A stretch of DNA of 64,000 bases from IMG/VR virus record IMGVR_UViG_3300025913_000018. One strand, 5' to 3'. This DNA is from a virus (lineage: Duplodnaviria > Heunggongvirae > Uroviricota > Caudoviricetes). The position numbers were made by a program, and so were the translations under genes. Shown here in pieces: positions 3,969 to 59,533 of the stretch. The notes beneath the pieces are model-generated. The model worked only from the letters and a program-made list of their open reading frames with translations, made no database searches and was not told where the DNA came from. Within the stretch, counting starts at the first letter, position 1; each line of letters begins with the position of its first letter.

Positions 3969-4364
3969 TTACTTCTTTTCGAGGAGCTTGCAGTCGATGA
4001 TCTGGGACCCTTCCTGGAGGGTCTCTACGAGAACTCGGTTCCCCTCGAACAGAACCTCATCCCCGGGACGAAGTCCGATCCCCACCGAGGGACTCGTCTC
4101 GCAGAGACTCCCGTCGGTGAGGTACACGTTCGAGTAGTCCGAGAACGAGTGGACGCAGACCACCTTCCCCGACCTTCGCGTTCGCTCGGGGTGAGAGAAC
4201 GTTGCCCAACTCGTGTGGATGTGGGGTTCGTTCGGAGAAAACCCTCTCTTCGAGAGGAGCTTCCATCCGGGCGGGACCCAGATCTCGGGTTGGTTGTCGC
4301 GAGTGAACGAGGCGTCGTTCCGGATAGTCCACTCAATCTTCGGAGGCACTTCCCTCACCTTCAT
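3969..4364 (-). CDS. hypothetical protein
   Basis: ORF track, 131 aa. Confidence 0.45.
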   Translation of the reverse strand: MKVREVPPKIEWTIRNDASFTRDNQPEIWVPPGWKLLSKRGFSPNEPHIHTSWATFSHPERTRRSGKVVCVHSFSDYSNVYLTDGSLCETSPSVGIGLRPGDEVLFEGNRVLVETLQEGSQIIDCKLLEKK

Positions 4365-4725
4365 CCTTCAGGGACGAGTAGCGGATGTAGGTGTTGGTCG
4401 CGGGGTCCATGAACGAGCTGAGGCCCCGCGCTTCCTCTTCCGTGATGATCCGGTACACTGCCGCCTGGATGATGTGGACGTGACCGAGGTTACAGGTCGC
4501 CGTCTTCTCCTCGGAGATCAGGAGCGTCTTCAGGACGTCGTCGGTAAGGATCCCCTGACTGTCACAGTTCGTGTCGTCCACGACGTTCGTGAAGGCCGGC
4601 CGAGCCCCGCAGTTCGGACAAAGCGATCGCTTCTCTTCCTCGCCTCCGAAGTAGTAGGGGTCGTCCCAGTTCCCGTGGAGGTGTCCGTTCTCACAGAACA
4701 CCTGAGCGTAGCCTTCCCAAGACAT
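4333..4725 (-). CDS. zinc-finger-like protein (C..H, CPNCG, C..H)
   Basis: Trimmed to MSWEGYAQVFCENGHLHG... with ATG 4723-4725 and GGGAGTAAGG SD 6 nt upstream. Confidence 0.5.
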   Translation of the reverse strand: MSWEGYAQVFCENGHLHGNWDDPYYFGGEEEKRSLCPNCGARPAFTNVVDDTNCDSQGILTDDVLKTLLISEEKTATCNLGHVHIIQAAVYRIITEEEARGLSSFMDPATNTYIRYSSLKDEGEGSASED

Positions 4726-4733
4726 AGGAGACC

Positions 4734-5021
4734 TTACTCCCGAGCGGAGGATCGGTAGGGAGAGACCGGGCGAACAACTTCTTCGATTCGGTCTCCTGAG
4801 TTGTACACCCCGAGACGATCTTTGAATACGGACATTTTGCCTTTCGAGATCACAAAGATCCGAACGGCTCTGTACTGAAGCTCGCGAATCGGCATGGGAG
4901 TGATCCCAGGCTCGGGATCGAGGATGCTGGTCTTCATCGACCCGTCCGCGAACACGTAGATGAAGGTGATTCGATTCTTCCGATCTACGATCATGACCCC
5001 ACCTTCTCGAACTACGATCAT
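4734..5021 (-). CDS. hypothetical protein
   Basis: MIVVREGGVMIVDRKN...; ATGA overlap with the upstream stop. The N-terminus is encoded by a tandem ~24-nt imperfect repeat. Confidence 0.4.
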   Translation of the reverse strand: MIVVREGGVMIVDRKNRITFIYVFADGSMKTSILDPEPGITPMPIRELQYRAVRIFVISKGKMSVFKDRLGVYNSGDRIEEVVRPVSPYRSSARE

Positions 5022-5308
5022 GAGCCCGCCTTTCCGAACAGTTCGAGCAACAGTCCATTCACCTTCAAGATCGTCTCGGACCTCTCCGGCGTTCGGTCTT
5101 CCCCGTAGCAGTCCACCCACGGAGCCCCGTCGTTCTGATGGCCGTTGTACTTCAACTTCCCGCCGAAGCCGAGGGTCCCGCAGAACCGCCACTCCACGAA
5201 GCGATCTTCCACGCGAACGTAGTGGCCAAAGATCTCCCCGTCCTCCGGTCGGGCTCCCGCGTGCTCCACGAGAATCGCCCAGACCTTCTTCGCCTTCTCC
5301 TGATCCAC
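5018..5308 (-). CDS. hypothetical protein
   Basis: 96-aa ORF MDQEKAKKVWAILVEH... Confidence 0.5.
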   Translation of the reverse strand: MDQEKAKKVWAILVEHAGARPEDGEIFGHYVRVEDRFVEWRFCGTLGFGGKLKYNGHQNDGAPWVDCYGEDRTPERSETILKVNGLLLELFGKAGS

Positions 5309-6237: not shown

Positions 6238-6765
6238 CTAGGCCTCTTCGATCTTCCCCGTGGGACGAAGGGGCGCGACGACTGCCTTACGCTTCGCCAT
6301 GAACTTGTTGAACGCGTCGTTCTCGGCCGTAGCGAAGGCCTCGGCCTCCACTACGATCTTCGAGAGCCGTTTGCGAAGCGCCTCGCATTGAGGGAGCGAG
6401 AGGAAGACACCCACCCGGAACGAGGGGAGCGTGTAGAAGCCCTTCCCCGCAACCCACTCCGGCTCTTTCTGGTCGCTTTGGGAGAGGATGTAGAGGTAGT
6501 CGCTGACGTCCTTCGCGGGGACGTGGATGGTGAGTCCGTCGATCGGTTCGAGTACGTAGATCTTCCGACGGGAAGAAGCCATCCCCCCGAGATCCAGATG
6601 GCCGTCGGTAGTCGGAGTCCGATCGGGCTCGTGGAACTCCACCCGATGCTTTTCGGTCGCGTCCTTCCTCCACAGCTCCACCAGGTTGTCCGCGATCGAG
6701 TCCTCGCACAAGGTTCGAGGCGGGCTGAGATCGGCGAAGCCCGGGAACAGGTACATCCAGGTCAT
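6238..6765 (-). CDS. hypothetical protein
   Basis: Trimmed to MTWMYLFPGF... (ATG 6763-6765), overlapping the upstream stop as ATGA. Confidence 0.45.
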   Translation of the reverse strand: MTWMYLFPGFADLSPPRTLCEDSIADNLVELWRKDATEKHRVEFHEPDRTPTTDGHLDLGGMASSRRKIYVLEPIDGLTIHVPAKDVSDYLYILSQSDQKEPEWVAGKGFYTLPSFRVGVFLSLPQCEALRKRLSKIVVEAEAFATAENDAFNKFMAKRKAVVAPLRPTGKIEEA

Positions 6766-7559
6766 GCCGGCCTCCGAACGAGAGCGGGGCGGACTTGGAG
6801 GAGGTAGAGGATGTCGTCGTGGATCGCCCACTCGATGTCCAGAACCTCGAAAGACGGGAACGCGTCGCGGCACTTCTCCGTCAGCTCGACGAGCGCGTCC
6901 AGCTCGTCAGTTCCGAGAAGGAGCTTCGAGTGAGTCTCCACCTCGACCTTCAGAGTCCCGATCACGGGGCTCGGCTGGAACATGACGGTCTGGTGACCGA
7001 GACGCGCTGGAGGGTCTACCGTCTCCCCCGTGAGCCGGTACTGGTCCGGGTCGACGATCCCCTGAACGATCGCCTCCCCGAGTCCTCGAACCGCCTCGAC
7101 GACATACTCGTCGGCACCCGTTGCGGGGTTCCGAGTGAAGAGGACCCCCGAGAGTTCGGCCGGGATGAAGGTCTGGATGCAGACGGCCATTTCCGGAGCC
7201 CCCGACACCCCTAGGCGCCTTCGGTACTCCTCCGCCCGCGGCGAGTAGGCCGAAGCCTCGACGCCCCGAATAGCCTCCTCTAGGAACTTCTTCGGGACGT
7301 TCAGGCTGGTGGAGTGGATCCCGGCGAAGGAAGCCTCCACCCCGTCCTCTTTCGGAGCCGAAGAGCGAACCGCGTACGGACCCTGAAGAAGCCCCTCGAC
7401 GAGGGTTCCGATCTCGTCCGGAAGGTCTGCCACCTCCGAGACCGAGAGGGCGAGCCCGTCCGGAACCGGAAGCCCGGCACGAAGGGCGATCGCGAGGGCC
7501 GCCGTCTTCCCGCCGTAGAGGCGAGAGTCGATCGCGTCCGCGAGCGAGGTGAGGGTCAT
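6762..7559 (-). CDS. PEP synthase / pyruvate-phosphate-dikinase N-terminal (PPDK_N, ATP-grasp-like) nucleotide-binding domain protein
   Basis: YGGKTAALAIALRAGLPVPDGLALS and SSAPKEDGVEASFAGIHSTSLNV resemble the GGKAANL...GxPVPxGF and SSA..ED...SFAGQ..T motifs of PEP synthase / rifampin phosphotransferase N-domains. ATGA-coupled to the upstream gene. Confidence 0.65.
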   Translation of the reverse strand: MTLTSLADAIDSRLYGGKTAALAIALRAGLPVPDGLALSVSEVADLPDEIGTLVEGLLQGPYAVRSSAPKEDGVEASFAGIHSTSLNVPKKFLEEAIRGVEASAYSPRAEEYRRRLGVSGAPEMAVCIQTFIPAELSGVLFTRNPATGADEYVVEAVRGLGEAIVQGIVDPDQYRLTGETVDPPARLGHQTVMFQPSPVIGTLKVEVETHSKLLLGTDELDALVELTEKCRDAFPSFEVLDIEWAIHDDILYLLQVRPALVRRPA

Positions 7560-8968
7560 TCGTCGTCTCCCGTGTCCTGGTACGGGGAGGGGTGGCTGAT
7601 GTAGCCGCGATCCGAGTCGAGGCGGAGCTTCATCCCCCTCGGGTAGCGCTTCACCGCGTCCTTCACGCGGAAGATCGGGATCCGCATCTCACGGGCGATG
7701 ATCGAGAGGTGGGAAAGCTCCCCGCCGTTCTCGGTGATGATTCCGCGCGCCTTCTCGATCGCTGCGTTGTTCTCGGGCGTGTTGCTGAGGTCCTTCAGGA
7801 CGAAGATGCAGCCGGGGGATTCCCCGACGTACCCCTCGCACTCCGGAGCCGACGCCAAAACGGTGCACTCGAAATTCCCGTATTTCGCCTGGACCTCGCC
7901 CATCTTCGCGAGAGCCGCTTCCATGACAGGGTTCCGAGAGAAGGAAGATCCTTCTTCGAAGGAGATCCCCGCCCCGAGCAACCAGTCGGTGTGGTAGGGG
8001 TCGTCCATCTGCATCTTCATCCCCGAGACCGAGACTTCCTTCCATTCCGGGGCGAGATGGCGAAGGGAGTGGGAACGACGAAGGGCCCAGTTCTCGAAGG
8101 GCGCGAGGGGGACCTGGAACGTTCGACCGTCCGACGTGACGAGATCGAAGAGGTTCCCATTGGCCTGCTTCAGGACGTCCTCTCGGATCTGAACGAGCTT
8201 CGCCTGGTAGGCGATCTCCCGCTTCATGTCCTCCTCTTCTTGGAACTCGGCTTCGCACTCGGCTTCCTCGCGAGCCTCACGCTCCCCGCGGTAGTCGCGG
8301 TGGTCTTCTTCCTCGTCCGGCGACCCCATCGCTCCGATCGCGCTGATCTTGTGGCCGGCGGCGACGTACTCGCGAATGGCGTCTTCGGGGAGGAGAAGCT
8401 CGTCGCGCCAGAAGGGGGCTTCTCCGACCGGCTCGAACAGGAAGAAGCGGCAGCGTCTGTGGTCGTAGTCGCTCTTCCGGTCGCGGGGGATCTCCACGCA
8501 GATCACGCCCTCGTGAGCGTAGTGGCGGGCCCGGTTCTTCCACCATTTACGGATCAGCGCCATGTGCTCGGGCGCCGTCCCGATATCCTCGTTGGGGTCG
8601 GGCAGGTCGAGCGAAGCGGAGATCGCGTCCTCGGGGCTGAAGGCCACGACCTCGGCGTACGGGCGATACCACGCGTTCTTGATCTTCACGCGACCGGCGT
8701 AGATGAACGCCAGGGTCTTCTGGTACTTCGCCGAAGAACGGTCCTTCGCGACTCGGATCCCCTTCGACGAATCGCCGGTGAACTTCTTCAGACCCTTCAG
8801 GACGTCGATCGCGACGCCCTGAAGCTCCCCCGGATTCCCTCCCGAGAGGGACGTCTGGATCATCCGCCACGCCTTCCCCGGAGCGTCGGAGAGGAGCAAG
8901 CCCCGAGCGTGCTCGGTGATGAAGGAACCCTCGATCAGGAAGTGGGCGACGCGTTCCGTACTGGTCAT
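7556..8968 (-). CDS. protein with C-terminal PEP-utilising (phospho-histidine swivel) domain; N-terminal ~380 aa unknown
   Basis: C-terminus ARGIITENGGELSHLSIIAREMRIPIF resembles the PEP-utilizers mobile domain GG.TSHAAI.ARE.GIP with its catalytic His. An acidic EEED-rich linker sits mid-protein. Confidence 0.65.
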   Translation of the reverse strand: MTSTERVAHFLIEGSFITEHARGLLLSDAPGKAWRMIQTSLSGGNPGELQGVAIDVLKGLKKFTGDSSKGIRVAKDRSSAKYQKTLAFIYAGRVKIKNAWYRPYAEVVAFSPEDAISASLDLPDPNEDIGTAPEHMALIRKWWKNRARHYAHEGVICVEIPRDRKSDYDHRRCRFFLFEPVGEAPFWRDELLLPEDAIREYVAAGHKISAIGAMGSPDEEEDHRDYRGEREAREEAECEAEFQEEEDMKREIAYQAKLVQIREDVLKQANGNLFDLVTSDGRTFQVPLAPFENWALRRSHSLRHLAPEWKEVSVSGMKMQMDDPYHTDWLLGAGISFEEGSSFSRNPVMEAALAKMGEVQAKYGNFECTVLASAPECEGYVGESPGCIFVLKDLSNTPENNAAIEKARGIITENGGELSHLSIIAREMRIPIFRVKDAVKRYPRGMKLRLDSDRGYISHPSPYQDTGDDE

Positions 8969-9162
8969 GACGCCTCCGAGATCTTCTTCCAGGTACCCTG
9001 GTAGACCTGGCCGGCCGCCGCTTTCGCGGTCATGTGGTGGACGAAGCGCTTCGCCTTCTTCGGGTCGAGGGTGTACCCGCCTTCGAGGCCTCGCCCGGCG
9101 ATCGCCTTCGAGAGGTTCACGAGGTAGGCCCCCTGGGACATCACGACGTAGTGAGCCTTCAT
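8965..9162 (-). CDS. small hypothetical protein
   Basis: MKAHYVVMSQGAYLVNL...; GGAGGAA SD; ATGA overlap at both ends. Confidence 0.45.
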   Translation of the reverse strand: MKAHYVVMSQGAYLVNLSKAIAGRGLEGGYTLDPKKAKRFVHHMTAKAAAGQVYQGTWKKISEAS

Positions 9163-9665
9163 TTCGGTTCCTCCGGATTGGCGAGGTCTTTCATCCATCG
9201 CTGAGCGTCCGCCTTCTGGACGAAGACCAGCCAGGGGCGATCGTCGCGGTGTAGGGAAGGGACGCTCAGCGTAGTGCCCGTATCGAGCGCCCACCAGGCG
9301 TCGTGCTTCGTAGCGAGTCGACGAAGAGTGGTCGTCGGTTCGACCAACGACTGTCGGATCCGAGAGACATCCTGGAGGCGGTGCTTCATCGGACCGAGCT
9401 GGTCCTTCACGAAGTCGGTCGCCTGGACGAGGTACCGCGGATCTCCGAGGAACCAGAGGGCCTTCGCCTCGGAGTGACCGTGTTCGAGCTTCAAGATCTG
9501 AAGGTCAACGAGATGCTCTCGCATCCGACGAGTCGCTTCCCCGAGGCGTCCGTACTCGAACTCCGCCGACCCCATGTAATCGAACGTGAAGTGTCGGTTG
9601 ATCCCCTTCATGTCCTCACGGACTCGATCTCGACGGTTCACGCGCTGGACGAGGTACGGGGTCAC
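9159..9665 (-). CDS. hypothetical protein
   Basis: 168-aa ORF. Confidence 0.5.
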   Translation of the reverse strand: MTPYLVQRVNRRDRVREDMKGINRHFTFDYMGSAEFEYGRLGEATRRMREHLVDLQILKLEHGHSEAKALWFLGDPRYLVQATDFVKDQLGPMKHRLQDVSRIRQSLVEPTTTLRRLATKHDAWWALDTGTTLSVPSLHRDDRPWLVFVQKADAQRWMKDLANPEEPK

Positions 9666-9862: not shown

Positions 9863-9892
9863 GTAACGAACGACCTCCGCCCCTTTACACTC
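9863..9892 (-). promoter_or_regulatory. conserved 30-bp promoter-like motif, instance b
   Basis: Plus strand gtaacgaacga-N11-ttacactc. Confidence 0.6.
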
Positions 9893-10391
9893 CCGGAGCG
9901 AAGCCCTGGCTCTCGACGAAGGACGCCAGGGTCTCGATGGCCGTTTCCAGCTCGATCTTCCGGATCGCCTCGTCCACGATCTTCCGGTGGTCGAAGCACC
10001 AGACGACGGAGTCCAGATCTCGAAGGGAGACCATCTTGAAGTCCTTCGCGTCGTCGCCCGCGACGGGGAGCTGGTTCGGATCTTTCGGAGACCCGAGGAA
10101 GGCGACCGAGACAACGTGCTGACGAGGATCTCGGGCCGGGTCCGAGTACACGCCGATGAGGCGCATCTTCTCGCCGTCGATGTCCAGGTTGGTCTCCTCC
10201 TTCGCCTCCCGAAGGGCAGCCGTCTCGACCGCCTCCCCGTAGTCCACGAAGCCCCCTGGAAGGGCGAGACCCAGGGGCGGGTTCCGACGCTCGATCACGA
10301 CGATCTTCGAGTCGAGGATCTCCGGAGCCCGGTAGAGGATCACGAGATCCACCGCGAGGGACGGGCACTTGTATTCGGCTTTGGAAGTCAT
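9885..10391 (-). CDS. NUDIX hydrolase
   Basis: Nudix box LPGGFVDYGEAVETAALREAKEETNL (GX5EX7REUXEEXGU). Start MTSKAEYK overlaps the upstream stop as ATGA. Confidence 0.8.
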   Translation of the reverse strand: MTSKAEYKCPSLAVDLVILYRAPEILDSKIVVIERRNPPLGLALPGGFVDYGEAVETAALREAKEETNLDIDGEKMRLIGVYSDPARDPRQHVVSVAFLGSPKDPNQLPVAGDDAKDFKMVSLRDLDSVVWCFDHRKIVDEAIRKIELETAIETLASFVESQGFAPGV

Positions 10392-10615
10392 GACGGCCAC
10401 TCGGCCCCTTCTTGGGTATCGGTCCAGTACAATCGAGTCGTGAAGGTGTCGTCGTCCCCGTCGAAACGAGGAGAGAACGCCGCGCACACCTTCACGCGAC
10501 GTCCGGTGTTCTTCTGGAAGTACTGACCGTACACCCCTGGCTCGTAGACCCACTCGCCTCCGTGGGTACGCCGAAGACGCTCGATCAGCCGATCTCGTTT
10601 TCGACGAGAGGTCAT
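10388..10615 (-). CDS. small hypothetical protein
   Basis: MTSRRKRDRLIERLRR...; ATGA overlap. Confidence 0.4.
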   Translation of the reverse strand: MTSRRKRDRLIERLRRTHGGEWVYEPGVYGQYFQKNTGRRVKVCAAFSPRFDGDDDTFTTRLYWTDTQEGAEWPS

Positions 10616-11097
10616 GTCCAGGTCGTGAGGTACGTAGAGCGACCGAGGCGGCCGATGTTCTTCATCCACTCGGCGACGCGCTGAAGAGCCACGATCTCCT
10701 CCCCGACAGGCAGGATGAACTTCCGACGGAGACCGTCCCACACGTACCAGGACGTCGGCTCTGTCCACCACCACCAGCTGTCCCAGAAACCCTCCTCAGA
10801 TCTCTCGGACACGAAGACCTTGAACGCGTTCACCTCATCGATCGGATTGGCGAACGCGATCGCCCCGAGCGAGACGAGATCGAGCTTCGGGTTGTAGTGA
10901 GATCCGGAGGGAAGACGAATCACCTCCTGGTCCCCGAACTTCTCGCGTTCCCACGCCCGAACGTCCACGAGTTCCTCGTTCTGGATCTTGAAGAACGAGT
11001 AGCCGACGAACTTCACGAAGGTGTCGATGTCCTCGTCGGTGAGGAAGCAACGCATGTCCTCCTTCTTGAAGTAGTAGTAACCGCCCTCAGCTCCCAT
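10612..11097 (-). CDS. hypothetical protein
   Basis: 161-aa ORF with GAGGAG SD. Confidence 0.5.
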   Translation of the reverse strand: MGAEGGYYYFKKEDMRCFLTDEDIDTFVKFVGYSFFKIQNEELVDVRAWEREKFGDQEVIRLPSGSHYNPKLDLVSLGAIAFANPIDEVNAFKVFVSERSEEGFWDSWWWWTEPTSWYVWDGLRRKFILPVGEEIVALQRVAEWMKNIGRLGRSTYLTTWT

Positions 11098-11422
11098 TTC
11101 TCAACTCCTCGAAGCGACGGATCAGCTCCATGACCCGGGAGTCCCCAAGGGAGCGAAAACACGTTCGCGAGGAAGCATAATGAGAGTCGGCGAACGATCG
11201 ACCCTCTTGATACTTCAGGACCCCATTCTCGTCATCGGAATCCTCGTATCCGTCGCACGCCCAGACCATGTCTCTGGAGTCCTGGAGGGAAAGATTCCTG
11301 CCGCACACTCGACACGGAGGTGGTTGCCGGACCTTGTACGTCTCCCGAACCACTTCGATCAGCTCATCGTGGGTGAGCTGATCGATCGGTCGCGTGAAGA
11401 GCATATCAGGAATCGTAGACAT
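11087..11422 (-). CDS. zinc-ribbon hypothetical protein
   Basis: CRVCGRNL...C motifs; 111 aa. Confidence 0.45.
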   Translation of the reverse strand: MSTIPDMLFTRPIDQLTHDELIEVVRETYKVRQPPPCRVCGRNLSLQDSRDMVWACDGYEDSDDENGVLKYQEGRSFADSHYASSRTCFRSLGDSRVMELIRRFEELRNGS

Positions 11423-11430
11423 GGGAAACC

Positions 11431-11964
11431 TCAGAACAGGGGAAGGTGGCCGAGTGAGATCACGTCTTCTCGTCGAGTTCCCTCGGTGAAGACTGCGAGA
11501 GTGGCGACGTGGGTCGCTCCGATCTTCGTCACCAACGCCTTCAACGCGTCGAGAGTTCCGCCCGACGACACGACATCGTCCACGAAGGCGACGCGCTTTC
11601 CTCGGAGGCGCTCCACGTCCTCTTCGGAGAGATAGAGTGTCTGGACCCGATCCGTAGTGATGCTCTTCACCTCGACCGAAACAGTCTCCCCCATGTATGG
11701 CTTCCGCTCCTTCCGAGCAACGAAGGTAGGGAGTCCGCTCTCACGTCCAAGAACGTGGAGAAGAGCTTGAGCCTTCCCGTCCGGCATGAGGAGCGCTTTC
11801 ACTCCAGACGGGAGCTTCGCTGCGAGAGCCTTACCGGCGGCCTCGGCTAGATTCCAGTCCCCGAGGATGTTGAACAGGGCCACTCGAACGCCTGGAGCTA
11901 CCTCGCGAATCGGCAGGAGCCGTATTGCGGGGCCGATCTCTATCTCGACGAATTCTTCGCCCAT
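11431..11964 (-). CDS. type I phosphoribosyltransferase (APRT/HGPRT-like)
   Basis: PRPP-binding motif VAFVDDVVSSGGTL; ~178 aa from MGEEFVEIEIG with GGGCGTAAGC SD. Confidence 0.7.
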   Translation of the reverse strand: MGEEFVEIEIGPAIRLLPIREVAPGVRVALFNILGDWNLAEAAGKALAAKLPSGVKALLMPDGKAQALLHVLGRESGLPTFVARKERKPYMGETVSVEVKSITTDRVQTLYLSEEDVERLRGKRVAFVDDVVSSGGTLDALKALVTKIGATHVATLAVFTEGTRREDVISLGHLPLF

Positions 11965-19569: not shown

Positions 19570-19875
19570 CTACTCCCACTCCAACAAGAGCCAGACGCCT
19601 CGATCCGGGATCGTCCCCGACGAGTACGAGAGGGTGGCCTCAGAAGGACCCACGGAGACCTTCCAGTCGTGAGGGAAGTCCTCCAGAAAGGCCCCTTGAA
19701 GGTGGACCGGCGAGTAGGGGAGCGTCGGGGAAACGCTCTCCGAACGAAACCTCGGAAGGGTCCAGACCGCCTCGGGGCGCTGCCTCTTCAGAGGCGCGAA
19801 CGAGATGCGGACGGTCCCCTTCCCGGGAGGTACCCACAGCAACTGTTGAAGCTTCGACACGGTTCCTTCTCTCAC
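19570..19875 (-). CDS. hypothetical protein
   Basis: 101 aa; promoter motif f immediately upstream. Confidence 0.45.
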   Translation of the reverse strand: MREGTVSKLQQLLWVPPGKGTVRISFAPLKRQRPEAVWTLPRFRSESVSPTLPYSPVHLQGAFLEDFPHDWKVSVGPSEATLSYSSGTIPDRGVWLLLEWE

Positions 19876-19910: not shown

Positions 19911-20141
19911 TCAGGTACCGCCGACGCAGGGCATGTCCCCGCACCACGCCGGGGCGTCTACGTTCGCGTCTCCCGAGCCCGAGTCAAGCCCGACGTCCGC
20001 CTGACCTACGTCGAATCCGGAGTCGGCGTCGTCGCTCGCGTCGAGAAGCGGAGCCGAGTCCGCGTAGCCCGAATCGGAGACCGGATTCGTGGAACACGAA
20101 CATCCAGAGAGAACCGAGAGAACCAGAAAAAAACGCATCAT
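19911..20141 (-). CDS. small Asp/Ser/Gly-rich lipoprotein
   Basis: MMRFFLVLSVLSGC lipobox signal peptide; GAAGGA SD. Confidence 0.55.
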   Translation of the reverse strand: MMRFFLVLSVLSGCSCSTNPVSDSGYADSAPLLDASDDADSGFDVGQADVGLDSGSGDANVDAPAWCGDMPCVGGT

Positions 20142-20368
20142 TCCTTCTTCTGAGGCTCCTTCAAGCCCCCTCCGTTCATGTAGTGAGCACCGCACTTCGA
20201 GCACCAGGTATTCGTCGTTGCCGACATCTGGTGAGATCCTCCCGGGCCGTAGACCCGGTGCATGGGGTCCCCTCGGTACTCGTGGGTCGTGTGAGAAACC
20301 AGGGCGCCTCCGCAACCGGAACAGAACGTTCCAGTCTCGGCGGGCCCTGGTTTGATCTCTCGCTTCAC
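20138..20368 (-). CDS. zinc-ribbon protein
   Basis: CSGCGG...CSKCG. Confidence 0.45.
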   Translation of the reverse strand: MKREIKPGPAETGTFCSGCGGALVSHTTHEYRGDPMHRVYGPGGSHQMSATTNTWCSKCGAHYMNGGGLKEPQKKE

Positions 20369-20371
20369 CGA

Positions 20372-20770
20372 TCAGCGACCGCGATCGCCCCGACGGCCGC
20401 GCGAGTCGTCACCCCGATCGTCTCGACGACCACCCCCGCCTCCGCCGCCGAAGTCGTCACGACGACCTCCACCGAAGCTCGTGGGACGGCCGCCTCCCCC
20501 TCCTCCGCCACCGGCCGAGCGCTCCAGGGCCTCGTTCACGTTGATGGTGCGGGGCGGGTTGCCCATGACGCTTCCATCCATCGCCTTGATCGCCTTCGCG
20601 GCCTGATCGTCGGTCGCGTACGTGACGAACCCGAACCCGCGCGAACGACCCGTCTCCCGATCGGAGATCACCTTGGCATCGCGGACGTCGCCGAAGGAGA
20701 CAAACGCCTCCTTCAGATCCTCGTCGTTGACGCCCCACGGAAGACCACCCACGAACAGCTTCTTTCCCAT
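20372..20770 (-). CDS. glycine-rich RNA-binding protein with RRM domain
   Basis: RNP-2 KLFVGGLPW and RNP-1 RGFGFVTY, followed by GGGGGGGG / RGG-like tail. Confidence 0.8.
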   Translation of the reverse strand: MGKKLFVGGLPWGVNDEDLKEAFVSFGDVRDAKVISDRETGRSRGFGFVTYATDDQAAKAIKAMDGSVMGNPPRTINVNEALERSAGGGGGGGGRPTSFGGGRRDDFGGGGGGGRRDDRGDDSRGRRGDRGR

Positions 20771-20846
20771 CTCACGACTCCCTTGAGTTCAGAACCAGGC
20801 ACCAGAGAAGCAACCTTACGCTCCAATCAGAGCGGATTCGACCGGG

Positions 20847-21437
20847 TCAATCCTCTTCTTCGGGCTCGGGAGGGAAGACCTTCGAAAGCTCGCGGACTCC
20901 CTGAGCGAAGTTCTTCAGTACCTTCTCGACCTTCCGAAGACTGTCCAATTCGTCGGCGATGCAGTAGGCTTCTTGGATCGTGATCTGAAGGGAGCGTCCC
21001 TTGCTCTCGAAGGCGTAGTCTTTCAGCTTCCGGGTGTCGATGATGTTGGGCTCGTTCCACTCCCCCTTCGCGAAGAAACCGTCGCTGGGTCTCGGGTTCG
21101 GAGCAGGGTCCGGAATGTCTCTCGGAGGTCCTTCGGCCCGTTCACCGTCTTTGAACCCTGGGAGGAACTTCACTCCCACCGTATGGGGGACGGCGATCCG
21201 GAAGCTCAACCCACAGTTCTGACACGAATGGGTGTGGTGAGGTTTCGTCGCGAAAGCTCCCTCGTCGATGTGGCGGGTATGACACATCGGACACTGAAGG
21301 ATCATCGGGATCGGAGCGAGGAGCTTCGCGACCTCGTGGACGATAACCCCCTCAGTAAGATCCACGTTCTTCGGGAGTCGATCGTCGAGGAGCGCGCGCA
21401 GCATGTCGTAGAGGGTCGGCTTTCCGGACTCAATCAT
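20847..21437 (-). CDS. zinc-binding hypothetical protein
   Basis: CPMCH...H.H.C.NC; 196 aa. Confidence 0.5.
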   Translation of the reverse strand: MIESGKPTLYDMLRALLDDRLPKNVDLTEGVIVHEVAKLLAPIPMILQCPMCHTRHIDEGAFATKPHHTHSCQNCGLSFRIAVPHTVGVKFLPGFKDGERAEGPPRDIPDPAPNPRPSDGFFAKGEWNEPNIIDTRKLKDYAFESKGRSLQITIQEAYCIADELDSLRKVEKVLKNFAQGVRELSKVFPPEPEEED

Positions 21438-22644: not shown

Positions 22645-23059
22645 ACTCCAGTTCGAGCGAGACGATCTGCTCCGGAACGACCTTCAGGTCCTCGCTACCG
22701 CAGTAGCATTCGGCCAGGTAGAAGATGACGTTTCGGTGAACCTGATCGTCGCGGGACTGCTCGATCCGCCGATGCGCTCGGGCGAGGAGCCGAGCCCGCT
22801 GTTCTTCGATCGGGGAAGCCTTCTCCGGATCTCCGAAGCGATGGTAGCGGAAGAGCCCGCCCCACCCGTGCATCCCGACCTTCCGGAAGACGCGACCGTC
22901 GGTGAGCGTCAGCTTGAAGATCCCGTACTCCCCGCACCGCCCTTCCCCGCCCGAGTCTCGAATGCTCTGGGCGTGTGCGGCGATCTCCGCGAGCGCGGTC
23001 TTCTCTCGAACGTCGTTGAAGAACGAAACCCCTACCGGACTCTTCAATGGAACCCCCAT
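22643..23059 (-). CDS. hypothetical protein
   Basis: 138-aa ORF. Confidence 0.5.
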   Translation of the reverse strand: MGVPLKSPVGVSFFNDVREKTALAEIAAHAQSIRDSGGEGRCGEYGIFKLTLTDGRVFRKVGMHGWGGLFRYHRFGDPEKASPIEEQRARLLARAHRRIEQSRDDQVHRNVIFYLAECYCGSEDLKVVPEQIVSLELE

Positions 23060-23247
23060 CGAGCGGCCTCTTGGATGAAGAGGCGAAGTAGATCAGGACC
23101 TGTCGTTTCCAGAGCGCCCCACGTGAAGACCTTCTTCACCTTCATGAGGCGTCCGCAGGCGTCCGCGCAGACGGGCCGGTTGTCGAACATCAAGGCCTTC
23201 CGACCTCGAAGGTTCTCTCGACACGCTGCGCAGAACATCCCCTTCAC
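23044..23247 (-). CDS. small zinc-binding protein
   Basis: CAACREN...CADACG. Confidence 0.4.
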   Translation of the reverse strand: MKGMFCAACRENLRGRKALMFDNRPVCADACGRLMKVKKVFTWGALETTGPDLLRLFIQEAARWGFH

Positions 23248-24715: not shown

Positions 24716-25006
24716 GGGGAAAGCCGCGACGCTCGCCTTCAGGTCGTCCTCTCGACGACGAAGCTCCGAGAACGCGTCGAGGACGGCCCCATCGGGAGTC
24801 GAACTGATTCGACCGAACTCTCCGGAGAGACCCTCGACCGTACATGTCCAGTTGTCCCGACGGACGGTGGTAGAGATCCTCTCCGTCCACTTCTCCAGAA
24901 GGAGCTTCGTGTGGGATGTCAACGACACGCGCCACACCCTCGGCTTCTCGCAGGTGAACCGGAGGCCTCGAACGATCATGTCCTTCGACTCGGAGGGGTC
25001 AGTCAT
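24710..25006 (-). CDS. hypothetical protein
   Basis: 98-aa ORF. Confidence 0.45.
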   Translation of the reverse strand: MTDPSESKDMIVRGLRFTCEKPRVWRVSLTSHTKLLLEKWTERISTTVRRDNWTCTVEGLSGEFGRISSTPDGAVLDAFSELRRREDDLKASVAAFPA

Positions 25007-25984
25007 GGTTCTCCTCGCTCGAACAGAGCGCTTTCGCCATCGCCGGGGTGATGAACGAGAGGTCGATCGGATTGTCCAATCTCTCGTTGATCACTTCCGC
25101 TACTTCCTTCGGGGAAAGGCTGCTGCCTCTCTCCCGATTCGATCCGCCGATGATGTCCGAGCCTCCCCACGGGGCGTCATCCTCGGCGCTGAGGGCTCCG
25201 TACAGGTCCTGGACCGGGAAGTCGACGTACCGCGAACGCCGACCGATCGTATAGACGTTCCGACCGTCGGGGCGCCGAGCGACGAGGCTCACGTACCCGT
25301 CGAGCTTCCCTTCCGCGAAGAGAGCGAATCGGGCGTCATTCCCTCCCGTCTCTTCGATCACCTTGAAACGAGGCGACTCGTAGAGGACGTGGTGTCGAGT
25401 GTCCAGGTTTCGGAGACCGGCCGAACCCATGAACGCTTGGGTGAGGTTGTTCATCACCGACTGGATACAGTTTCGGATTACCGACTCGTTCGCAGCCGCG
25501 AGCGCGCCCGACTTTCGGAGGTCCGAGTACGGGCTAAAGACCCAGGTGTGCTGCTGGAGAACCCGTTCATCGAGGCTCATCGGATAGGCGCCGCCGGTGA
25601 TGTCGAGGCGATCGCTCAGTTCGAGGAAGCGGTTGATGATGGGGTGGCTCTGGACGCCGGTGAAGCTCTTCCACCGCGAGATCAACCAGACCGCGAAGGA
25701 GGTGTCCTGGTCCGGATCATTCACGTAGATCGTCGCGTTCCCGTCGAACCGCTCCATGAGGCCGCCCTTGATCGCGAACATGACCTGCTTCGCGGTGCTC
25801 ATGGTCGCTTCTCGGATGCACGAGTCGTGGTGGTCGAAGTTGACGTGGAGCGTACGCTCGTTCCAGTTCGGACCTCCGGTCACGATCCCGTCGAGCGCGA
25901 TCGAACACTTCGGCGCAGAGGCCACGAAGGCCTCCCAGGTCATGACGTGACGCGGGAGGACGACGAGATTGATGTTGTCGTTCA
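24999..25984 (-). CDS. hypothetical protein (328 aa)
   Basis: MNDNINLVVLPRHVMTWEAF...; contains VNFDHHD. No confident family. Confidence 0.5.
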
Positions 25985-26353
25985 TTCGTGGGCTTTGATG
26001 GAGCTCATGAGGTCGATCGCGAGCTTGTAGCTCTCGCACTCCGGGTTTACGCCCGAGACAATCGTGTACGAGCCTTCGCCGAAGAGAAGGTGGAGGTGCC
26101 ACCCCTCATTCTCCTCAGTCGCCCCGTCGTCTCTCCAGGAAGCCTCCGACTCTGGGTCCCGGTACACGAGCCACTCCGAAGGGATCTTCACGTCCCGATC
26201 GAAGTGACGAAGAGGCTCGGTGTCCTCTTCCGAGTCCACTCCCGCGATCTCCGCCTCGGGCCAGGTCAAGGAGATCAGCTTCAGGAGAAAGCGCGCCTTC
26301 GAGGGCGTCGGCTTCGATTCCAGGATGTGGTCGTGTCCTCCGATCTCCATCAC
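25982..26353 (-). CDS. acidic hypothetical protein
   Basis: 123 aa. Confidence 0.5.
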   Translation of the reverse strand: MMEIGGHDHILESKPTPSKARFLLKLISLTWPEAEIAGVDSEEDTEPLRHFDRDVKIPSEWLVYRDPESEASWRDDGATEENEGWHLHLLFGEGSYTIVSGVNPECESYKLAIDLMSSIKAHE

Positions 26354-29044: not shown

Positions 29045-29548
29045 TCGACTCTTCCTCGTCTCGGGGTCCCAGCGTCTCTCGTTTTCCGGGACCCATCGGT
29101 ACTTCGGGAAGAGGTCCACCGCGTTGTACCGCCCCTCTTCGAGACCGAGAAGTCCGTCAGAAGCGGAGACGGACTCCCCGTTCCTGAAGTGGAAGCGAAG
29201 CTCCAGCACCCCCAACATCCCGAGCGCGAGCCACATCAGGACGTCGTGTACGTCGCCCATCTCCAAGTCTGGGACCAACCTCTTCACCTCGGAGGCATAG
29301 AAGTGAGTCTCAGGGGCCAGCCCCTGATCGAACTTCGCTTCGAGGAGAGCGTTGTAGAGGCGCTCGTGCTTCGAGGCTTCGCCCCAAACCTCTCGAATGA
29401 ACTTCAAGGGAGGGCTCACCGGAGCCGGAGGCAGGGAAAGAGAGCGAGCTTCCGGAGAGCCAGAGTACCTCTCTTGAACGCAGTACCAACACGCACGAGT
29501 TCGTATGTGTAGGTGATTGTGTTTCTTGCAGAGTTTCCTACTGGCCAT
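29039..29548 (-). CDS. hypothetical protein
   Basis: MASRKLCKKHNHLHIRTRACWYCVQE... Confidence 0.45.
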   Translation of the reverse strand: MASRKLCKKHNHLHIRTRACWYCVQERYSGSPEARSLSLPPAPVSPPLKFIREVWGEASKHERLYNALLEAKFDQGLAPETHFYASEVKRLVPDLEMGDVHDVLMWLALGMLGVLELRFHFRNGESVSASDGLLGLEEGRYNAVDLFPKYRWVPENERRWDPETRKSRR

Positions 29549-30039
29549 CAGGGTACCTGATTTGACCTCTCGACGAGAATCTCTTCGCGGACCCTCATGA
29601 GAAGCTTTCCAAGATGGTTCTCTCCGATCCCTCCGGCGTTCTCGTCCACGCCCCAGAACCGATCTCCCCAAGTAGTTCCCTCGATCAACTCCGCGTCTCC
29701 CGTGGAGATGAGTAGGGCTCGAAGGGTCGGGTACTTGAACTTCTGGACGAGGAGGGCGTACATGACCTTCACTCGAATGTCGTCCCAGTCGTCGCGTCGC
29801 GGAACCCGGCGACCGGCCTTCTTCGACTCGGAAGCGGTCATGGTCTGGAACGACTCGGTGAGCTGAACGCGATTCGGGATCTTCGAGTCGATCTTTGCCG
29901 CTTGGAAGGCGTTCTCGACCGAGGGCATCTTGAAGGACATCTTCTCCCCGTCGTGGGTGAAGCTGAGTACGACGGGGATCTGATAGAAGTTCGACAGGAA
30001 GCGATAGCTCCCTGAGAAACGACGGATGACCTCAGCCAT
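29548..30039 (-). CDS. NADAR / YbiA-like (DUF1768) N-glycosidase-family protein
   Basis: Signature RFLSNFY...E..FQA.K...GTTWGDRFWG; 163 aa. Confidence 0.75.
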   Translation of the reverse strand: MAEVIRRFSGSYRFLSNFYQIPVVLSFTHDGEKMSFKMPSVENAFQAAKIDSKIPNRVQLTESFQTMTASESKKAGRRVPRRDDWDDIRVKVMYALLVQKFKYPTLRALLISTGDAELIEGTTWGDRFWGVDENAGGIGENHLGKLLMRVREEILVERSNQVP

Positions 30040-31534: not shown

Positions 31535-32461
31535 TCAGTGATCGCTCATCATGACGCCGAACCCGCTGTTCGGCACGAACATCGTCCGAGTCCCGGTGCT
31601 CTGGAGGACCGAGCTGAGCGCTTCGATCCGACGATACTCCAAGACCGACGGGGTCATCGAGGCGGAGATCGTCTGGTTCGCGTAAGCGGTCGCGTCCGCT
31701 TCGGCACGTGTCGTGTAGGCGGCCGTGTCCGCGACGATTCTCTGGGCCGTGGCGTGACCGTTCGCCTCGGTCTGAACTCGGTTCGCTTCAGCCTGAGCCG
31801 TGAGAAGAGCCTGCTGAGCGCGAACGGTCTCCTGACGTTGGTTCTGGACGGCTGCGATCGCGGCGTCGAGAGAGTCCGGAAGATCCGTCCCCTGTAGGAG
31901 GATGTTCTCCACGACGACCGCATTCGTCGGAACGTTTCGACTCGACAGAGCCTCTTCGAGACGAGAGTGGACGAGGTTCTCCATCATCGTCTGGAGCCGT
32001 GGGCGCTCGTCCACCAGCTCGATCGCTGTGAAGGTCGAGGCGGCGTCTCGGATCGCAGTGCGGACGATCGGATGTACGATCGTGTCCGCGTACGACTCTC
32101 CGTAGTACCGGTAGATCTGAGGCGCCGTCGTCGCGTTGAGATGGAACTGGACCGTCGCGCTGAGGATCACTTCCAGCTGGTCGTGGGAGAGGACGTGGAT
32201 CGCGTCTCCGCGGGCGATCGTGCTCTCCGGGGCTCCATCCTGAGAAGTGGTCGTTCCGCTCGTCCCCATCTCGTAGGCCTGGGTCCGAGTCGACATGTGG
32301 ATGACGTTCATCCACATGCTCGTGAAGTGGTAGCCCTCGGGATAGATCCACGGCTGGGTCTCGCCCCAATCGACCCCGACCCCGACCTCGCCGGGATTGA
32401 TAGTCTCGGAACACCCGATCGAGAACGCCGACGCCAACAGGAACATCAGAACACGAGTCAT
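31535..32461 (-). CDS. SPFH/band-7 (prohibitin/HflKC-like) lipoprotein
   Basis: Lipobox MTRVLMFLLASAFSIGC; SPFH-like core and Ala/Gln-rich coiled-coil tail. Confidence 0.65.
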   Translation of the reverse strand: MTRVLMFLLASAFSIGCSETINPGEVGVGVDWGETQPWIYPEGYHFTSMWMNVIHMSTRTQAYEMGTSGTTTSQDGAPESTIARGDAIHVLSHDQLEVILSATVQFHLNATTAPQIYRYYGESYADTIVHPIVRTAIRDAASTFTAIELVDERPRLQTMMENLVHSRLEEALSSRNVPTNAVVVENILLQGTDLPDSLDAAIAAVQNQRQETVRAQQALLTAQAEANRVQTEANGHATAQRIVADTAAYTTRAEADATAYANQTISASMTPSVLEYRRIEALSSVLQSTGTRTMFVPNSGFGVMMSDH

Positions 32462-33869: not shown

Positions 33870-34763
33870 TCACGGAAACTTTCTCGTCGGGGCTCTCGAT
33901 AGGCCCGGCGGACGGATCAACTCGTCCGTGAGCTTCGAGGGGAGATCGTTCGTCTTCCCGAGGAGCGACCCGAGCCCCAAACAGAGCGCCGCGAGGGTGT
34001 CTACGTCGCCTCCGAGGGCGACCGCCTGTACGAGAAGCTCGTGGAGGGTCTCGTGCCGTAGGAGGAGCCCGAAGGCGGCCTCAACGATCATCCTCCCGCT
34101 CGTAGAACCGACCCTCCATTGGACCGGATCCCAGAACCGAGGGTCGGCCCATCCGAGGTGGGACATTGTGGTCGTGAGACCGGTACGAGTCCCGTTGTAG
34201 GCCGCCAGCGCCACGGCCACCGCCGCGTCGATCGAGTCCGGATGGTGGTGGGTAGCGCGAGCCTGAGCTATCGCCGCCGTCATGACGTGATACCCGGCGA
34301 ACTTCTTCTCACCGGTGAATGGGCTGATCAAGCCGACCGGAATCGCTCGCATCGCCGCCCCGCACGTGTCCTTCAGGTTCGTCTCGATTCCTTCGCGGCA
34401 TCTCGCCATGAGGTCGAGGCCTGGTGTCACGCTTCGAGCGGCCTCGGGGAGAACGGCTCTCATCCGGCCGCCATAGCCGGGGGCGGGGTCGAACTTGTAC
34501 TCGGCGACGAACTCGTCCGCGAAGTCCACCGACCTCCACCAGAACTCCGTCTTCATGACCGCGAGCGTCATCTGGGTGTCGTCGGTCGTTCCTCCCGGTC
34601 GATGGTTCCGATCGAGCCCGTGGACTCGGTAGGTGAGCCCGTCGTTGTTCTCCTTCACGAAGGAGAGAGGACGCATCTCGAACCCGGCCCCGTAAGCGTC
34701 GCCCACCATGAAGGCGAGAAGCCACTCGGAAACGGTCTCGACCTCGGGATAGTGCTCAGACAT
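33870..34763 (-). CDS. ADP-ribosylglycohydrolase (ARH/DraG family)
   Basis: N-terminal GDAYGAGFE, GGTTDDTQMTLAV, C-terminal GGDVDTLAALCLGLGSLLG; 297 aa. Confidence 0.8.
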   Translation of the reverse strand: MSEHYPEVETVSEWLLAFMVGDAYGAGFEMRPLSFVKENNDGLTYRVHGLDRNHRPGGTTDDTQMTLAVMKTEFWWRSVDFADEFVAEYKFDPAPGYGGRMRAVLPEAARSVTPGLDLMARCREGIETNLKDTCGAAMRAIPVGLISPFTGEKKFAGYHVMTAAIAQARATHHHPDSIDAAVAVALAAYNGTRTGLTTTMSHLGWADPRFWDPVQWRVGSTSGRMIVEAAFGLLLRHETLHELLVQAVALGGDVDTLAALCLGLGSLLGKTNDLPSKLTDELIRPPGLSRAPTRKFP

Positions 34764-58804: not shown

Positions 58805-59533
58805 TTACTCGGTAGAGATTCTGGGCTTCAGGTCGACGATGATCGGAGGGTTCTTCGGCTTCCCGTCCGCGTTGAAGAGCGCCGCGTTCAGACAGAGCGT
58901 TCCGAACTCCGTGACGTAGAGACCTCGACGAGGATGGATGTGTCCGAAGGCGTGGATACGGGGCTTCACCCTCTCGATCGCCCGACGGAGCGCGGGCGAG
59001 CCCGTGAAGTCGTAGTACCCATCCTTCCGGATCATGAGATCCAGAATCCCCTTCGGAGGACTGTGGGTGACGAGAACGTCGATCGGACCCCGAATGTGGT
59101 TGAAGGCCCGCTCGTCTTCGCCTGGGGTAGTCGTCTGGAAGGCGAAGTCTCCGCAGTACCCGACCCAGGGCGCCCCGTAGAACACCAGCCCCTCGACCGT
59201 AGCCGCCCCGTCCTGCAGGTAGATGACCCCGGCCCGGCGGAAGCGGTCTCGTGCCATGGCGGGGCCTTCCGGCCACCCCTTACGGGTGAGGGGACAGGTC
59301 TCGTCCAAGATCTCGTCATGGTTCCCCGCGACGACCACGATGTGCTTCACGTACCCCTTCTTGAGGAGCATCGCGCACCAATCAGCGAACGTCCCCAGCT
59401 CCCCAAGCGTGCCGTGGTACTCGCAGAAGTCCCCGCAGTGGACGAGGATGTCGATCCCCGCCTTCTTCGTCAGGAACTGAGTGACCTTCGTGTGATGAAG
59501 GTGGGTGTCGCTGATGAAGGCGAGGCGGGTCAT
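58805..59533 (-). CDS. calcineurin-like metallophosphoesterase
   Basis: Motifs ISDTHLHH, GDF, GNHD, THSPP, GHIH. Confidence 0.75.
   Translation of the reverse strand: MTRLAFISDTHLHHTKVTQFLTKKAGIDILVHCGDFCEYHGTLGELGTFADWCAMLLKKGYVKHIVVVAGNHDEILDETCPLTRKGWPEGPAMARDRFRRAGVIYLQDGAATVEGLVFYGAPWVGYCGDFAFQTTTPGEDERAFNHIRGPIDVLVTHSPPKGILDLMIRKDGYYDFTGSPALRRAIERVKPRIHAFGHIHPRRGLYVTEFGTLCLNAALFNADGKPKNPPIIVDLKPRISTE

Follow-up and report, generated by a model that had tools for sequence, protein, structure and literature searches.

A glycine-rich RRM protein with a conserved C-terminal motif encoded in a huge phage-like genome

Proteins with an RNA recognition motif (RRM) are the chief RNA binders of eukaryotes, and a global RNA-chaperone role for such proteins in some bacteria has been recognized recently. 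Here, we analyzed a gene for a single-RRM protein, referred to below as the RRM gene, that lies in a 64,000-nucleotide stretch of phage-like DNA (the window) from the IMG/VR virus record IMGVR_UViG_3300025913_000018. The closest described cellular proteins are the bacterial RRM-1 proteins, which include RbpA/B/C of Bacteroides, the cyanobacterial Rbp proteins and uncharacterized homologues in Myxococcota and Planctomycetota, and for which a general RNA-chaperone or cold-shock-like role is expected (PMC13370968, PMC11697453); those of Bacteroides form a redundant, non-canonical set of cold-shock RNA-binding proteins (PMC13370968). The bacterial RRM-1 proteins and the window protein have in common an N-terminal RRM of about 80 amino acids, the RNP-1 and RNP-2 motifs and a short Gly/Arg-rich tail. 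However, the former are encoded by cells, whereas the window protein comes from a huge phage-like element. It differs from them further in the Asp-rich RRDD and RGD units of its tail, in ending in GRRDDRGDDxRGRRGDRG rather than in a terminal Trp, in scoring under the cut-off for the Rbp_regulator family and in being encoded by a gene without a long 5' untranslated region (UTR).

The glycine-rich RNA-binding proteins of eukaryotes (NtGR-RBP1, HvGR-RBP1 and the Arabidopsis GRP7 class in plants, together with CIRBP and RBM3) have the same two-part architecture as the window protein and provide its best structural matches. The plant and mammalian proteins are RNA chaperones in cold adaptation (PMC4117745, PMC1802614), and those of plants complement cold-sensitive Escherichia coli, with the Gly-rich tail aiding chaperoning (PMC1802614, PMC4117745). 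In contrast to the window tail, which has many Asp residues, their tails carry RGG and Tyr repeats; they are also less identical to the window protein than the bacterial homologues are, and the kinship is at the level of the class only.

Virus-encoded counterparts are more distant. Large phages encode RNA-handling proteins of their own, which act in the stability, export or translation of mRNA (PMC11077065, PMC12152347, PMC7824862). ChmC of the nucleus-forming jumbo phages, the GoF/LSm-like proteins of T4 and T4 RegA are, like the window protein, phage-encoded RNA-handling proteins, but their folds and ancestry are unrelated to it, and none belongs to Pfam RRM_1. The RRM proteins of giant eukaryotic viruses (pithovirus, mimivirus relatives and marseillevirus) and of baculoviruses, which accounted for all significant matches in the BFVD library of viral structures, have a virus-encoded RRM fold as here; however, they are larger, multi-domain proteins at 12-26% identity, whereas the window element has bacterial-type translation signals and matches to phage families.

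The RRM protein and the element that encodes it

The 132-residue product of the RRM gene (Table 1) is a member of Pfam RRM_1 by profile, motifs and predicted fold. The PF00076 profile matched residues 5-71 at E=2.4e-23, and the score of 82.2 bits, against a gathering cut-off of 20.7 bits, is far above chance. The assigned ATG start at 20770 is backed by homologues that also start with MGKKLFVGGL. The three aromatic residues that stack on RNA bases, F6, F46 and F48, do not vary across the alignments, and both RNP motifs are invariant across the phage-borne subfamily defined below. An AlphaFold2 model, which was built on 16 homologues and is a prediction rather than a solved structure, gave the beta-alpha-beta-beta-alpha-beta order of an RRM, with strands at residues 4-8, 29-36, 43-51 and 77-80, helices at residues 16-24 and 54-64, and predicted local distance difference test (pLDDT) values of 90-95 for these elements against 42-56 for the tail. 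When the model was compared with the PDB, 783 structures matched at E<=0.001, and all 50 of the matches listed were RRM-fold chains. The top match was tobacco NtGR-RBP1 (4c7q; 49% identity, template modelling score 0.87), and barley HvGR-RBP1 (2mpu; 48%), CIRBP (5tbx; 43%) and RBM3 (7eb1) were among the further leading matches; PDB entries were also matched at the level of sequence. As modelled, the protein has the architecture of a glycine-rich RNA-binding protein, an N-terminal single RRM followed by a Gly-rich C terminus predicted to be disordered.

The window is 61% G+C, and a gene call based on G+C at third codon positions (GC3) gave 122 candidate genes, mostly for proteins of fewer than 250 amino acids, of which 100 lie on the minus strand together with the RRM gene. 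The 79 window proteins that were scanned gave matches to only 14 Pfam families, compared with 22 PHROG families (including phrog_1211, phrog_2971 and phrog_11532). The annotated matches comprise a PurA/PurZ-type adenylosuccinate synthetase, a split phosphoenolpyruvate (PEP)-utilizing/PPDK_N pair, NADAR, ADP-ribosylglycohydrolase, NUDIX, Band_7/SPFH and metallophosphoesterase proteins. The GC3 of the RRM domain (0.85) is close to the window gene mean (0.785; standard deviation, 0.053). The window matches the 110-kb JGI contig Ga0105240_10000233 and a 101-kb Logan contig, and the identical RRM protein is found on a contig of 472,929 bp; in all, three independent assemblies carry it. The element is probably a huge phage, a reading that has good but indirect support from the 22 PHROG matches, from a tail-sheath gene that adjoins a related RRM gene in locus L175, from the integrase and GP88 genes at the locus of the relative P0003, and from a 367-residue window protein with homologues in a GenBank "uncultured phage" of 485 kb and an IMG/VR contig of 392 kb. 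Many huge phages carry clusters of tRNA genes. The 64-kb window, part of a contig reaching 473 kb, contains neither a tRNA gene nor an Rfam match that reaches the gathering score; the missing tRNA genes are unusual in comparison with many huge phages, and tRNA clusters may lie outside the window.

A homologue search scored 8,000 candidates, of which 7,658 were significant at E<=1e-5. The nearest relatives of the window protein have identities of 62-78%; ranked by identity over the RRM domain, they were P0003 (76%), P0008 (71%), P0004 (68%), P0005 (66%) and P0011 (64%). The contigs of these five and of P0078, which represents the next-nearest group in the tree, were read, and all six have phage-like contexts: the five nearest lie in arrays of small ORFan genes, and P0078 adjoins a tail-sheath gene. 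P0004 is encoded on a 259-kb contig with genes for a metallophosphoesterase, a 2-oxoglutarate-Fe(II) oxygenase, an AAA ATPase and a phage-type RNA ligase, and the P0008 locus is syntenic with it; P0003 adjoins a phage integrase and a GP88 protein. The window has in common with these relatives' loci the metallophosphoesterase (53% identity) and the 367-residue protein (59-64%). Gene order is kept over a longer block at the P0011 locus (L174), where homologues of the 67-residue protein, the upstream zinc-ribbon protein, the RRM protein, the downstream zinc-ribbon protein and the 101-residue protein (Table 1) follow one another as in the window and are themselves followed by homologues of 9159..9665, the PEP-utilizers/PPDK_N pair and 4333..5058. 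The best-conserved full-length protein of this block is the RRM protein, at 62% identity versus 38-52% for the others. At the P0004, P0005 and P0008 loci, the zinc-ribbon neighbors are absent, and the RRM gene is followed by an AAA ATPase gene or by other genes.

In a neighbor-joining tree of the 84-residue domain, the window protein and P0003-P0011 form a clade with a bootstrap value of only 24%; two IMG/VR sequences are sister to it, and the whole is nested among sequences of Myxococcota, Planctomycetota and "Deltaproteobacteria". The best cellular homologues in species-representative genomes have 61-64% identity (Sandaracinus and Polyangiales, 64%; Myxococcota, 62%; Planctomycetaceae, 62-63%). 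With Myxococcota nominally best at 64%, Planctomycetota and Oligoflexia at 62-63% and low support in the tree, neither a donor nor a host phylum could be assigned. No cyanobacterial sequence was present among the best 80 genome loci, and none was put into the tree; the lists of matches do not hint at a specific tie to the cyanobacterial Rbp proteins.

An earlier note on this DNA, made from its letters alone, had described a single-RRM glycine-rich RNA-binding protein with an LFVGGL RNP-2, an RGFGFVTY RNP-1 and a long Gly/Arg-rich tail, set in a phage-like gene array. The profile search, the predicted fold and the PDB matches agree with this description, all three sequence features are present in the translation, and the array is confirmed by the co-directional small genes and by PHROG matches on both sides of the RRM gene. 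The gene belongs to the element and not to flanking host DNA, as the orthologues in related phage-like contigs (P0003, P0004, P0005, P0008 and P0011) and the gene order kept in L174 indicate, and related elements, which the note had proposed to check, do carry it. The label "eukaryote/cyanobacteria-type" is right for the class of protein but not for the nearest cellular relatives found here, which are those of Myxococcota, Planctomycetota and "Deltaproteobacteria".

The same note had called such proteins rare in mobile elements, which holds for reference phages but is too broad in view of the metagenomic viral contigs. The RRM protein matched none of 38,880 PHROG families and 3 of 50,697 GenBank phage records, in each case weakly (35-37% identity): the Microcystis jumbo phage MaAM05, which was the sole cyanophage match, at 35%, and two records named "Acinetobacter phage MD-2021a". 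Full-text searches of the literature yielded no paper on phage-encoded glycine-rich proteins of Pfam RRM_1, and in a comparative survey of 224 jumbo phages the RRM fold comes up only in connection with the palm domains of polymerases and with RegA. In contrast, a profile scan of IMG/VR found RRM relatives on at least 89 viral contigs, which may include giant virus or misclassified contigs. Many of them are 100-500 kb in size; among the 80 contigs listed, 20 are of at least 100 kb and 9 of at least 200 kb. Searches of IMG/VR with exact peptide patterns returned no close relatives, and the profile search gave only viral RRMs at up to 61% identity; no hallmark genes were seen in two RRM contigs that were sampled. 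The IMG/VR sequences are diverse, polyphyletic and scattered over the tree, which suggests that viral RRM genes were captured repeatedly.

Two further layouts were observed among the IMG/VR contigs. On the 298-kb contig of the closest IMG/VR relative (L013), the RRM gene (10001..10300) directly precedes a gene on the plus strand (10565..11815) that matches phrog_506, annotated "transposase", at E=8e-100; a mobile element may help RRM genes to move between genomes. Loci L031-L075 encode near-identical RRM proteins of 93-94 residues (MGVRLFVGNLSFSLGDGDLREAF...) with no Gly-rich tail, on contigs of 5-14 kb from many samples, and apparently represent a separate, widespread virus- or prophage-associated RRM lineage.

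The C-terminal tail and the translation signals

The 48-residue tail, SAGGGGGGGGRPTSFGGGRRDDFGGGGGGGRRDDRGDDSRGRRGDRGR, comprises 22 Gly (46%), 11 Arg and 7 Asp residues and is laid out as two units of a Gly run plus RRDD, followed by a terminal motif of mixed charge. The translation contains no RGG triplet and no Tyr in this region; Gly runs with RRDD and RGD units are present instead. Cellular homologues have plain Gly/Arg tails, and a terminal Trp, found in 87 of 120 homologues, is lacking in the window protein and in P0011. The terminal motif GRRDDRGDDxRGRRGDRG is shared by group members at 64-78% identity and is absent from cellular homologues. Among the 120 best hits, the core pattern RG.RRGDR occurs only in the window protein, its 99% identical variant P0001 and P0003-P0009, and among 80 metagenome loci it is confined to the closest relatives, all of them in DNA of 63-65% G+C; the window protein also contains the longer pattern R[RHS][DG]DRGD..RGRRGDRG after its two Gly runs. 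The phage-borne RRM subfamily is defined here as the window protein, P0001 and P0003-P0009, with P0010 and P0011 as relatives in RRM domain and context that do not have the full motif.

We compared the codons of the 18-residue end, GRRDDRGDDSRGRRGDRG, with those of related loci. Between the window and L008, 17 of the 18 residues are identical while 13 codons differ synonymously, and different synonymous codons encode the same amino acids in L003, L006 and L008. Since the residues were kept despite the synonymous differences, the end of the tail appears to be under purifying selection, a clear sign, at the level of sequence, that the motif is constrained and more than low-complexity drift.

Relatives that end in Trp near the position of the window gene's TGA gave rise to the idea that this codon is read through or recoded, fusing the RRM to the downstream zinc-ribbon open reading frame, which is in frame with it. 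This idea was not supported. As 78 of 104 window genes stop at TGA, the standard code applies; the near-identical P0001 ends alike, and in L174 the RRM gene and the zinc-ribbon gene are 76 nucleotides apart.

The region upstream of the RRM gene had been described in the earlier note as an untranslated leader containing a distal element, with RNA chaperoning of leaderless transcripts as a possible role for the protein. The gap (76 nucleotides) and the distal element, GGAGCGTAAGG, are indeed present. However, the element, which occurs once in the window, is not conserved when the upstream sequences of five orthologous loci are aligned, is by its position too far from the ATG to serve as a Shine-Dalgarno (SD) sequence, and lies in a leader no more structured than shuffled sequence: the fold energy of the 100 nucleotides around the start was -27.1 kcal/mol, compared with -28.1 +/- 3.3 for shuffles (z=+0.31). 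Near the RRM gene, no site resembling a promoter or terminator was found, and the only features common to the aligned upstream regions of the five orthologous genes were an AGGAG/GGGAG-like element at the SD position and a short proximal stretch. On these results, together with the absence of Rfam matches, a special leader or regulatory RNA was rejected as unsupported. The notion of leaderless transcripts fared no better. An AAGGGAG sequence 7 nucleotides before the ATG, which the first reading had overlooked, is an ordinary SD, and SD-like tetramers are found at -16 to -4 of 45% of window genes versus 16% of random positions; because of this proximal SD and the window-wide enrichment, leaderless translation was rejected, and nothing points to leaderless transcripts.

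Function of the RRM protein

The function to which we give about half of our confidence, judging from sequence, is that of a host-derived general RNA chaperone or stabilizer for the transcripts of a huge phage-like genome; that it is active as a chaperone, which RNAs it targets and when it is expressed can only be inferred. A bacterial Rbp-type RRM gene would have been captured long ago by an ancestor of the phage lineage and inherited vertically since then, and it would be expressed as an ordinary SD-led cistron in a long co-directional, operon-like array. The beta-sheet of the RRM, with the aromatic residues of RNP-1 and RNP-2, would bind single-stranded RNA with low sequence specificity, and the disordered Gly/Arg/Asp tail would supply extra RNA contacts or self-association. 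Together, domain and tail would hold phage transcripts in an unfolded, stable and translatable state in the manner of the cellular RRM-1 and cold-shock-type chaperones, and a phage with its own supply of chaperone would be independent of that of its host once the host is shut off or when the soil is cold.

Several observations weigh against this chaperone function. The tail is unlike those of the proven chaperones in that it lacks an RGG box, contains many Asp residues and ends in a subfamily-specific motif, and these differences may reflect a more specific partner or function. In a comparison with the NCBIfam equivalog domain NF058537 (Rbp_regulator), the protein scored 85.3 bits (E=2.6e-24), under the 100-bit cut-off; by this measure it is related to Rbp_regulator proteins but is not to be filed as that equivalog. 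Cold-regulated cellular rbp and csp genes typically have a long regulatory 5' UTR (PMC13370968), which is missing from the 76-nucleotide spacer. Finally, the window and about 16 kb of its flanks yielded no gene for a capsid, terminase or portal protein, save for one weak portal-family match (E=1.2e-4), and the phage identity of the window contig for this reason rests on inference.

A tail that has diverged to a phage-specific conserved motif is also what would be expected of altered partner binding, and the RNA-binding surface is essentially that of the cellular homologues (61-64% identity, with identical RNP motifs). It is possible, if doubtful, that the protein is a host-takeover factor, a mimic of host Rbp-type proteins that would compete for host mRNAs, small RNAs or their protein partners and so either shut down or redirect host translation or RNA decay to the benefit of the phage, and the surrounding region has many genes that are candidates for host manipulation (NADAR, ADP-ribosylglycohydrolase, NUDIX and Band_7). 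However, the sequence does not separate mimicry from plain chaperoning, and general RRM chaperones mostly stimulate expression rather than block it.

The tail, predicted to be disordered, of low complexity and alternating in charge, and yet conserved in sequence, might alternatively serve to organize phage ribonucleoprotein bodies or to coat single-stranded nucleic acid. By analogy with ChmC, the protein would form condensates with phage RNA or single-stranded DNA, possibly together with the zinc-ribbon proteins encoded on either side, whose genes are kept in L174 and one of which is apparently translationally coupled to the RRM gene. Very large phages need dedicated mRNA-handling proteins (PMC11077065), and NtGR-RBP1 binds single-stranded DNA as well as RNA (PMC4117745), both of which would fit such a role. 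Nevertheless, neither a chimallin gene nor any other compartment gene turned up in the window and the zinc-ribbon neighbors are missing from the P0004, P0005 and P0008 loci, and we consider this role unlikely. An unlikely but more far-reaching proposal is that huge soil phages keep a dedicated, vertically inherited RRM protein whose tail is a docking or self-assembly peptide and which, with the zinc-ribbon proteins, packages or routes phage mRNAs. If true, a phage mRNA-packaging RRM protein would be a counterpart of eukaryotic hnRNP-type messenger ribonucleoprotein organization and not a borrowed generic chaperone.

Still less probable is an anti-defense RNA decoy or sponge that would neutralize a host immune RNA (of a retron, toxin-antitoxin, CRISPR or abortive-infection system). 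The array does hold NADAR and ADP-ribosylglycohydrolase genes, though these are about 9-13 kb from the RRM gene, but generic RRM surfaces are ill-suited to specific RNA recognition without extra elements. Neither the RRM protein nor its nine neighbors matched the PADLOC defense and candidate families, and an assignment of the gene to defense or anti-defense was rejected on that result. With plentiful cellular homologues, and with viral RRM genes in IMG/VR being polyphyletic, the gene might be thought a passenger, a recently captured host rbp gene or mis-assembled host DNA with no phage-specific role, but we give this almost no weight in view of its mid-array position between phage-family genes, the identical protein on three independent assemblies, the orthologues and synteny in divergent phage-like contigs, the element-adjusted base composition and the purifying selection on the tail.

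The gene reveals no new molecular mechanism and is a real, moderately unusual borrowed gene. What is modestly novel is its vertical inheritance in a huge-phage lineage together with the conserved, phage-specific C-terminal motif: such a lineage has long retained an RRM protein with a constrained tail of its own. Phage-encoded control of RNA folding or stability may belong to the lifestyle of large-genome phages, and a small, readily expressed protein offers a means to test that idea. A family of this kind, unrepresented in PHROGs and among GenBank phages apart from the three weak matches, would otherwise pass for host contamination.

Neighboring genes

The coordinates of the RRM gene, its parts and the other features of the window are given in Table 1.

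Table 1. Features of the 64-kb window, with the strand and the evidence for each
Feature	Coordinates	Strand	Evidence
RRM gene, 132-aa single-RRM glycine-rich RNA-binding protein	20372..20770 (stop TGA, 20372-20374)	-	Open reading frame list, sequence, Pfam RRM_1
RRM domain, residues 1-84	20519..20770	-	AlphaFold2 model and PDB matches
RNP-2, LFVGGL, residues 5-10	20741..20758	-	Read from translation
RNP-1, RGFGFVTY, residues 44-51	20618..20641	-	Read from translation
Gly/Arg/Asp-rich tail, predicted disordered, residues 85-132	20375..20518	-	Composition; pLDDT 42-56
Conserved C-terminal motif GRRDDRGDDSRGRRGDRG, signature of the phage-borne subfamily	20378..20431	-	Motif searches, codon comparison
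Intergenic spacer, 76 nt, between upstream zinc-ribbon gene and RRM gene	20771..20846	-	Upstream stop at 20847-20849
Shine-Dalgarno sequence AAGGGAG, 7 nt before ATG	20778..20784	-	Sequence, pattern search
Distal GGAGCGTAAGG, 44-54 nt from ATG	20814..20824	-	Single occurrence in window (pattern search)
Downstream zinc-ribbon gene, 76 aa, four Cys	20138..20368	-	48% identity over 64 aa to L174:3761-4000, both CxxC pairs kept
Upstream zinc-ribbon gene, 196 aa, CPxC...CxxC	20847..21437	-	62% identity over 55 aa to L174:2067-2603
101-aa gene, L174-syntenic block	19570..19875	-	43% identity over 99 aa to L174 4040-4321
67-aa gene, L174-syntenic block	23044..23247	-	52% identity over 66 aa to L174 1844-2041
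Fis-type helix-turn-helix protein (C-terminal HTH_8), 108 aa	23257..23583	-	E=1.2e-8
367-aa protein	24999..26102	-	No match to a Pfam or PHROG family; homologues in several huge viral contigs
NADAR-domain protein and ADP-ribosylglycohydrolase	29548..30039 and 33870..34763	-	Within 5 kb of one another
Band_7/SPFH protein	31535..32461	-	Family match
Split pair, PPDK_N (ATP-grasp) and PEP-utilizers (swivel)	6762..7559 and 7556..8968	-	Overlap of 4 nt
NUDIX hydrolase	9885..10553	-	Family match
Metallophosphoesterase	58805..59533	-	53% identity to P0004 and P0005 phage-like loci
Adenylosuccinate-synthetase homologue, 450 aa	60976..62328	-	phrog_1211, PHROG family with PurZ-type enzymes, E=4e-75

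The downstream zinc-ribbon gene begins with a GTG codon 3 nucleotides after the stop codon of the RRM gene and in the same frame, an arrangement from which it is probably translationally coupled to the RRM gene. The JGI gene call covers only its last 41 residues; because the L174 homologue keeps both CxxC pairs, the longer form is taken to be the real gene. The protein encoded by the upstream zinc-ribbon gene had weak Pfam matches of zinc-ribbon type only.

The 367-residue protein has homologues at 59-64% identity in L003, L008 and L173, at 60% in the 392-kb IMG/VR contig and at 37% in the 485-kb GenBank record LR745208.1, and an invariant motif of the HxNxDHHD/DPDQD type in its sequence suggests a metal-dependent enzyme. 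A relationship to a published phage at the level of the genome was considered and rejected, as this protein alone matched in the regions around the hits in LR745208.1 (41 kb) and in the 392-kb contig (21 kb).

The adenylosuccinate-synthetase homologue scored 176 bits against the NCBIfam PurA cut-off of 402 and 37.9 bits against the PurZ cut-off of 300. The PPDK_N/PEP-utilizers pair resembles PEP synthase or rifamycin phosphotransferase and is found in the same order in L174 at 41-45% identity. The NADAR and ADP-ribosylglycohydrolase proteins could reverse a defensive ADP-ribosylation by the host. The Fis-type protein, whose gene lies upstream of the RRM gene at a distance of about 2.5 kb, is among the few candidate regulators of the array.

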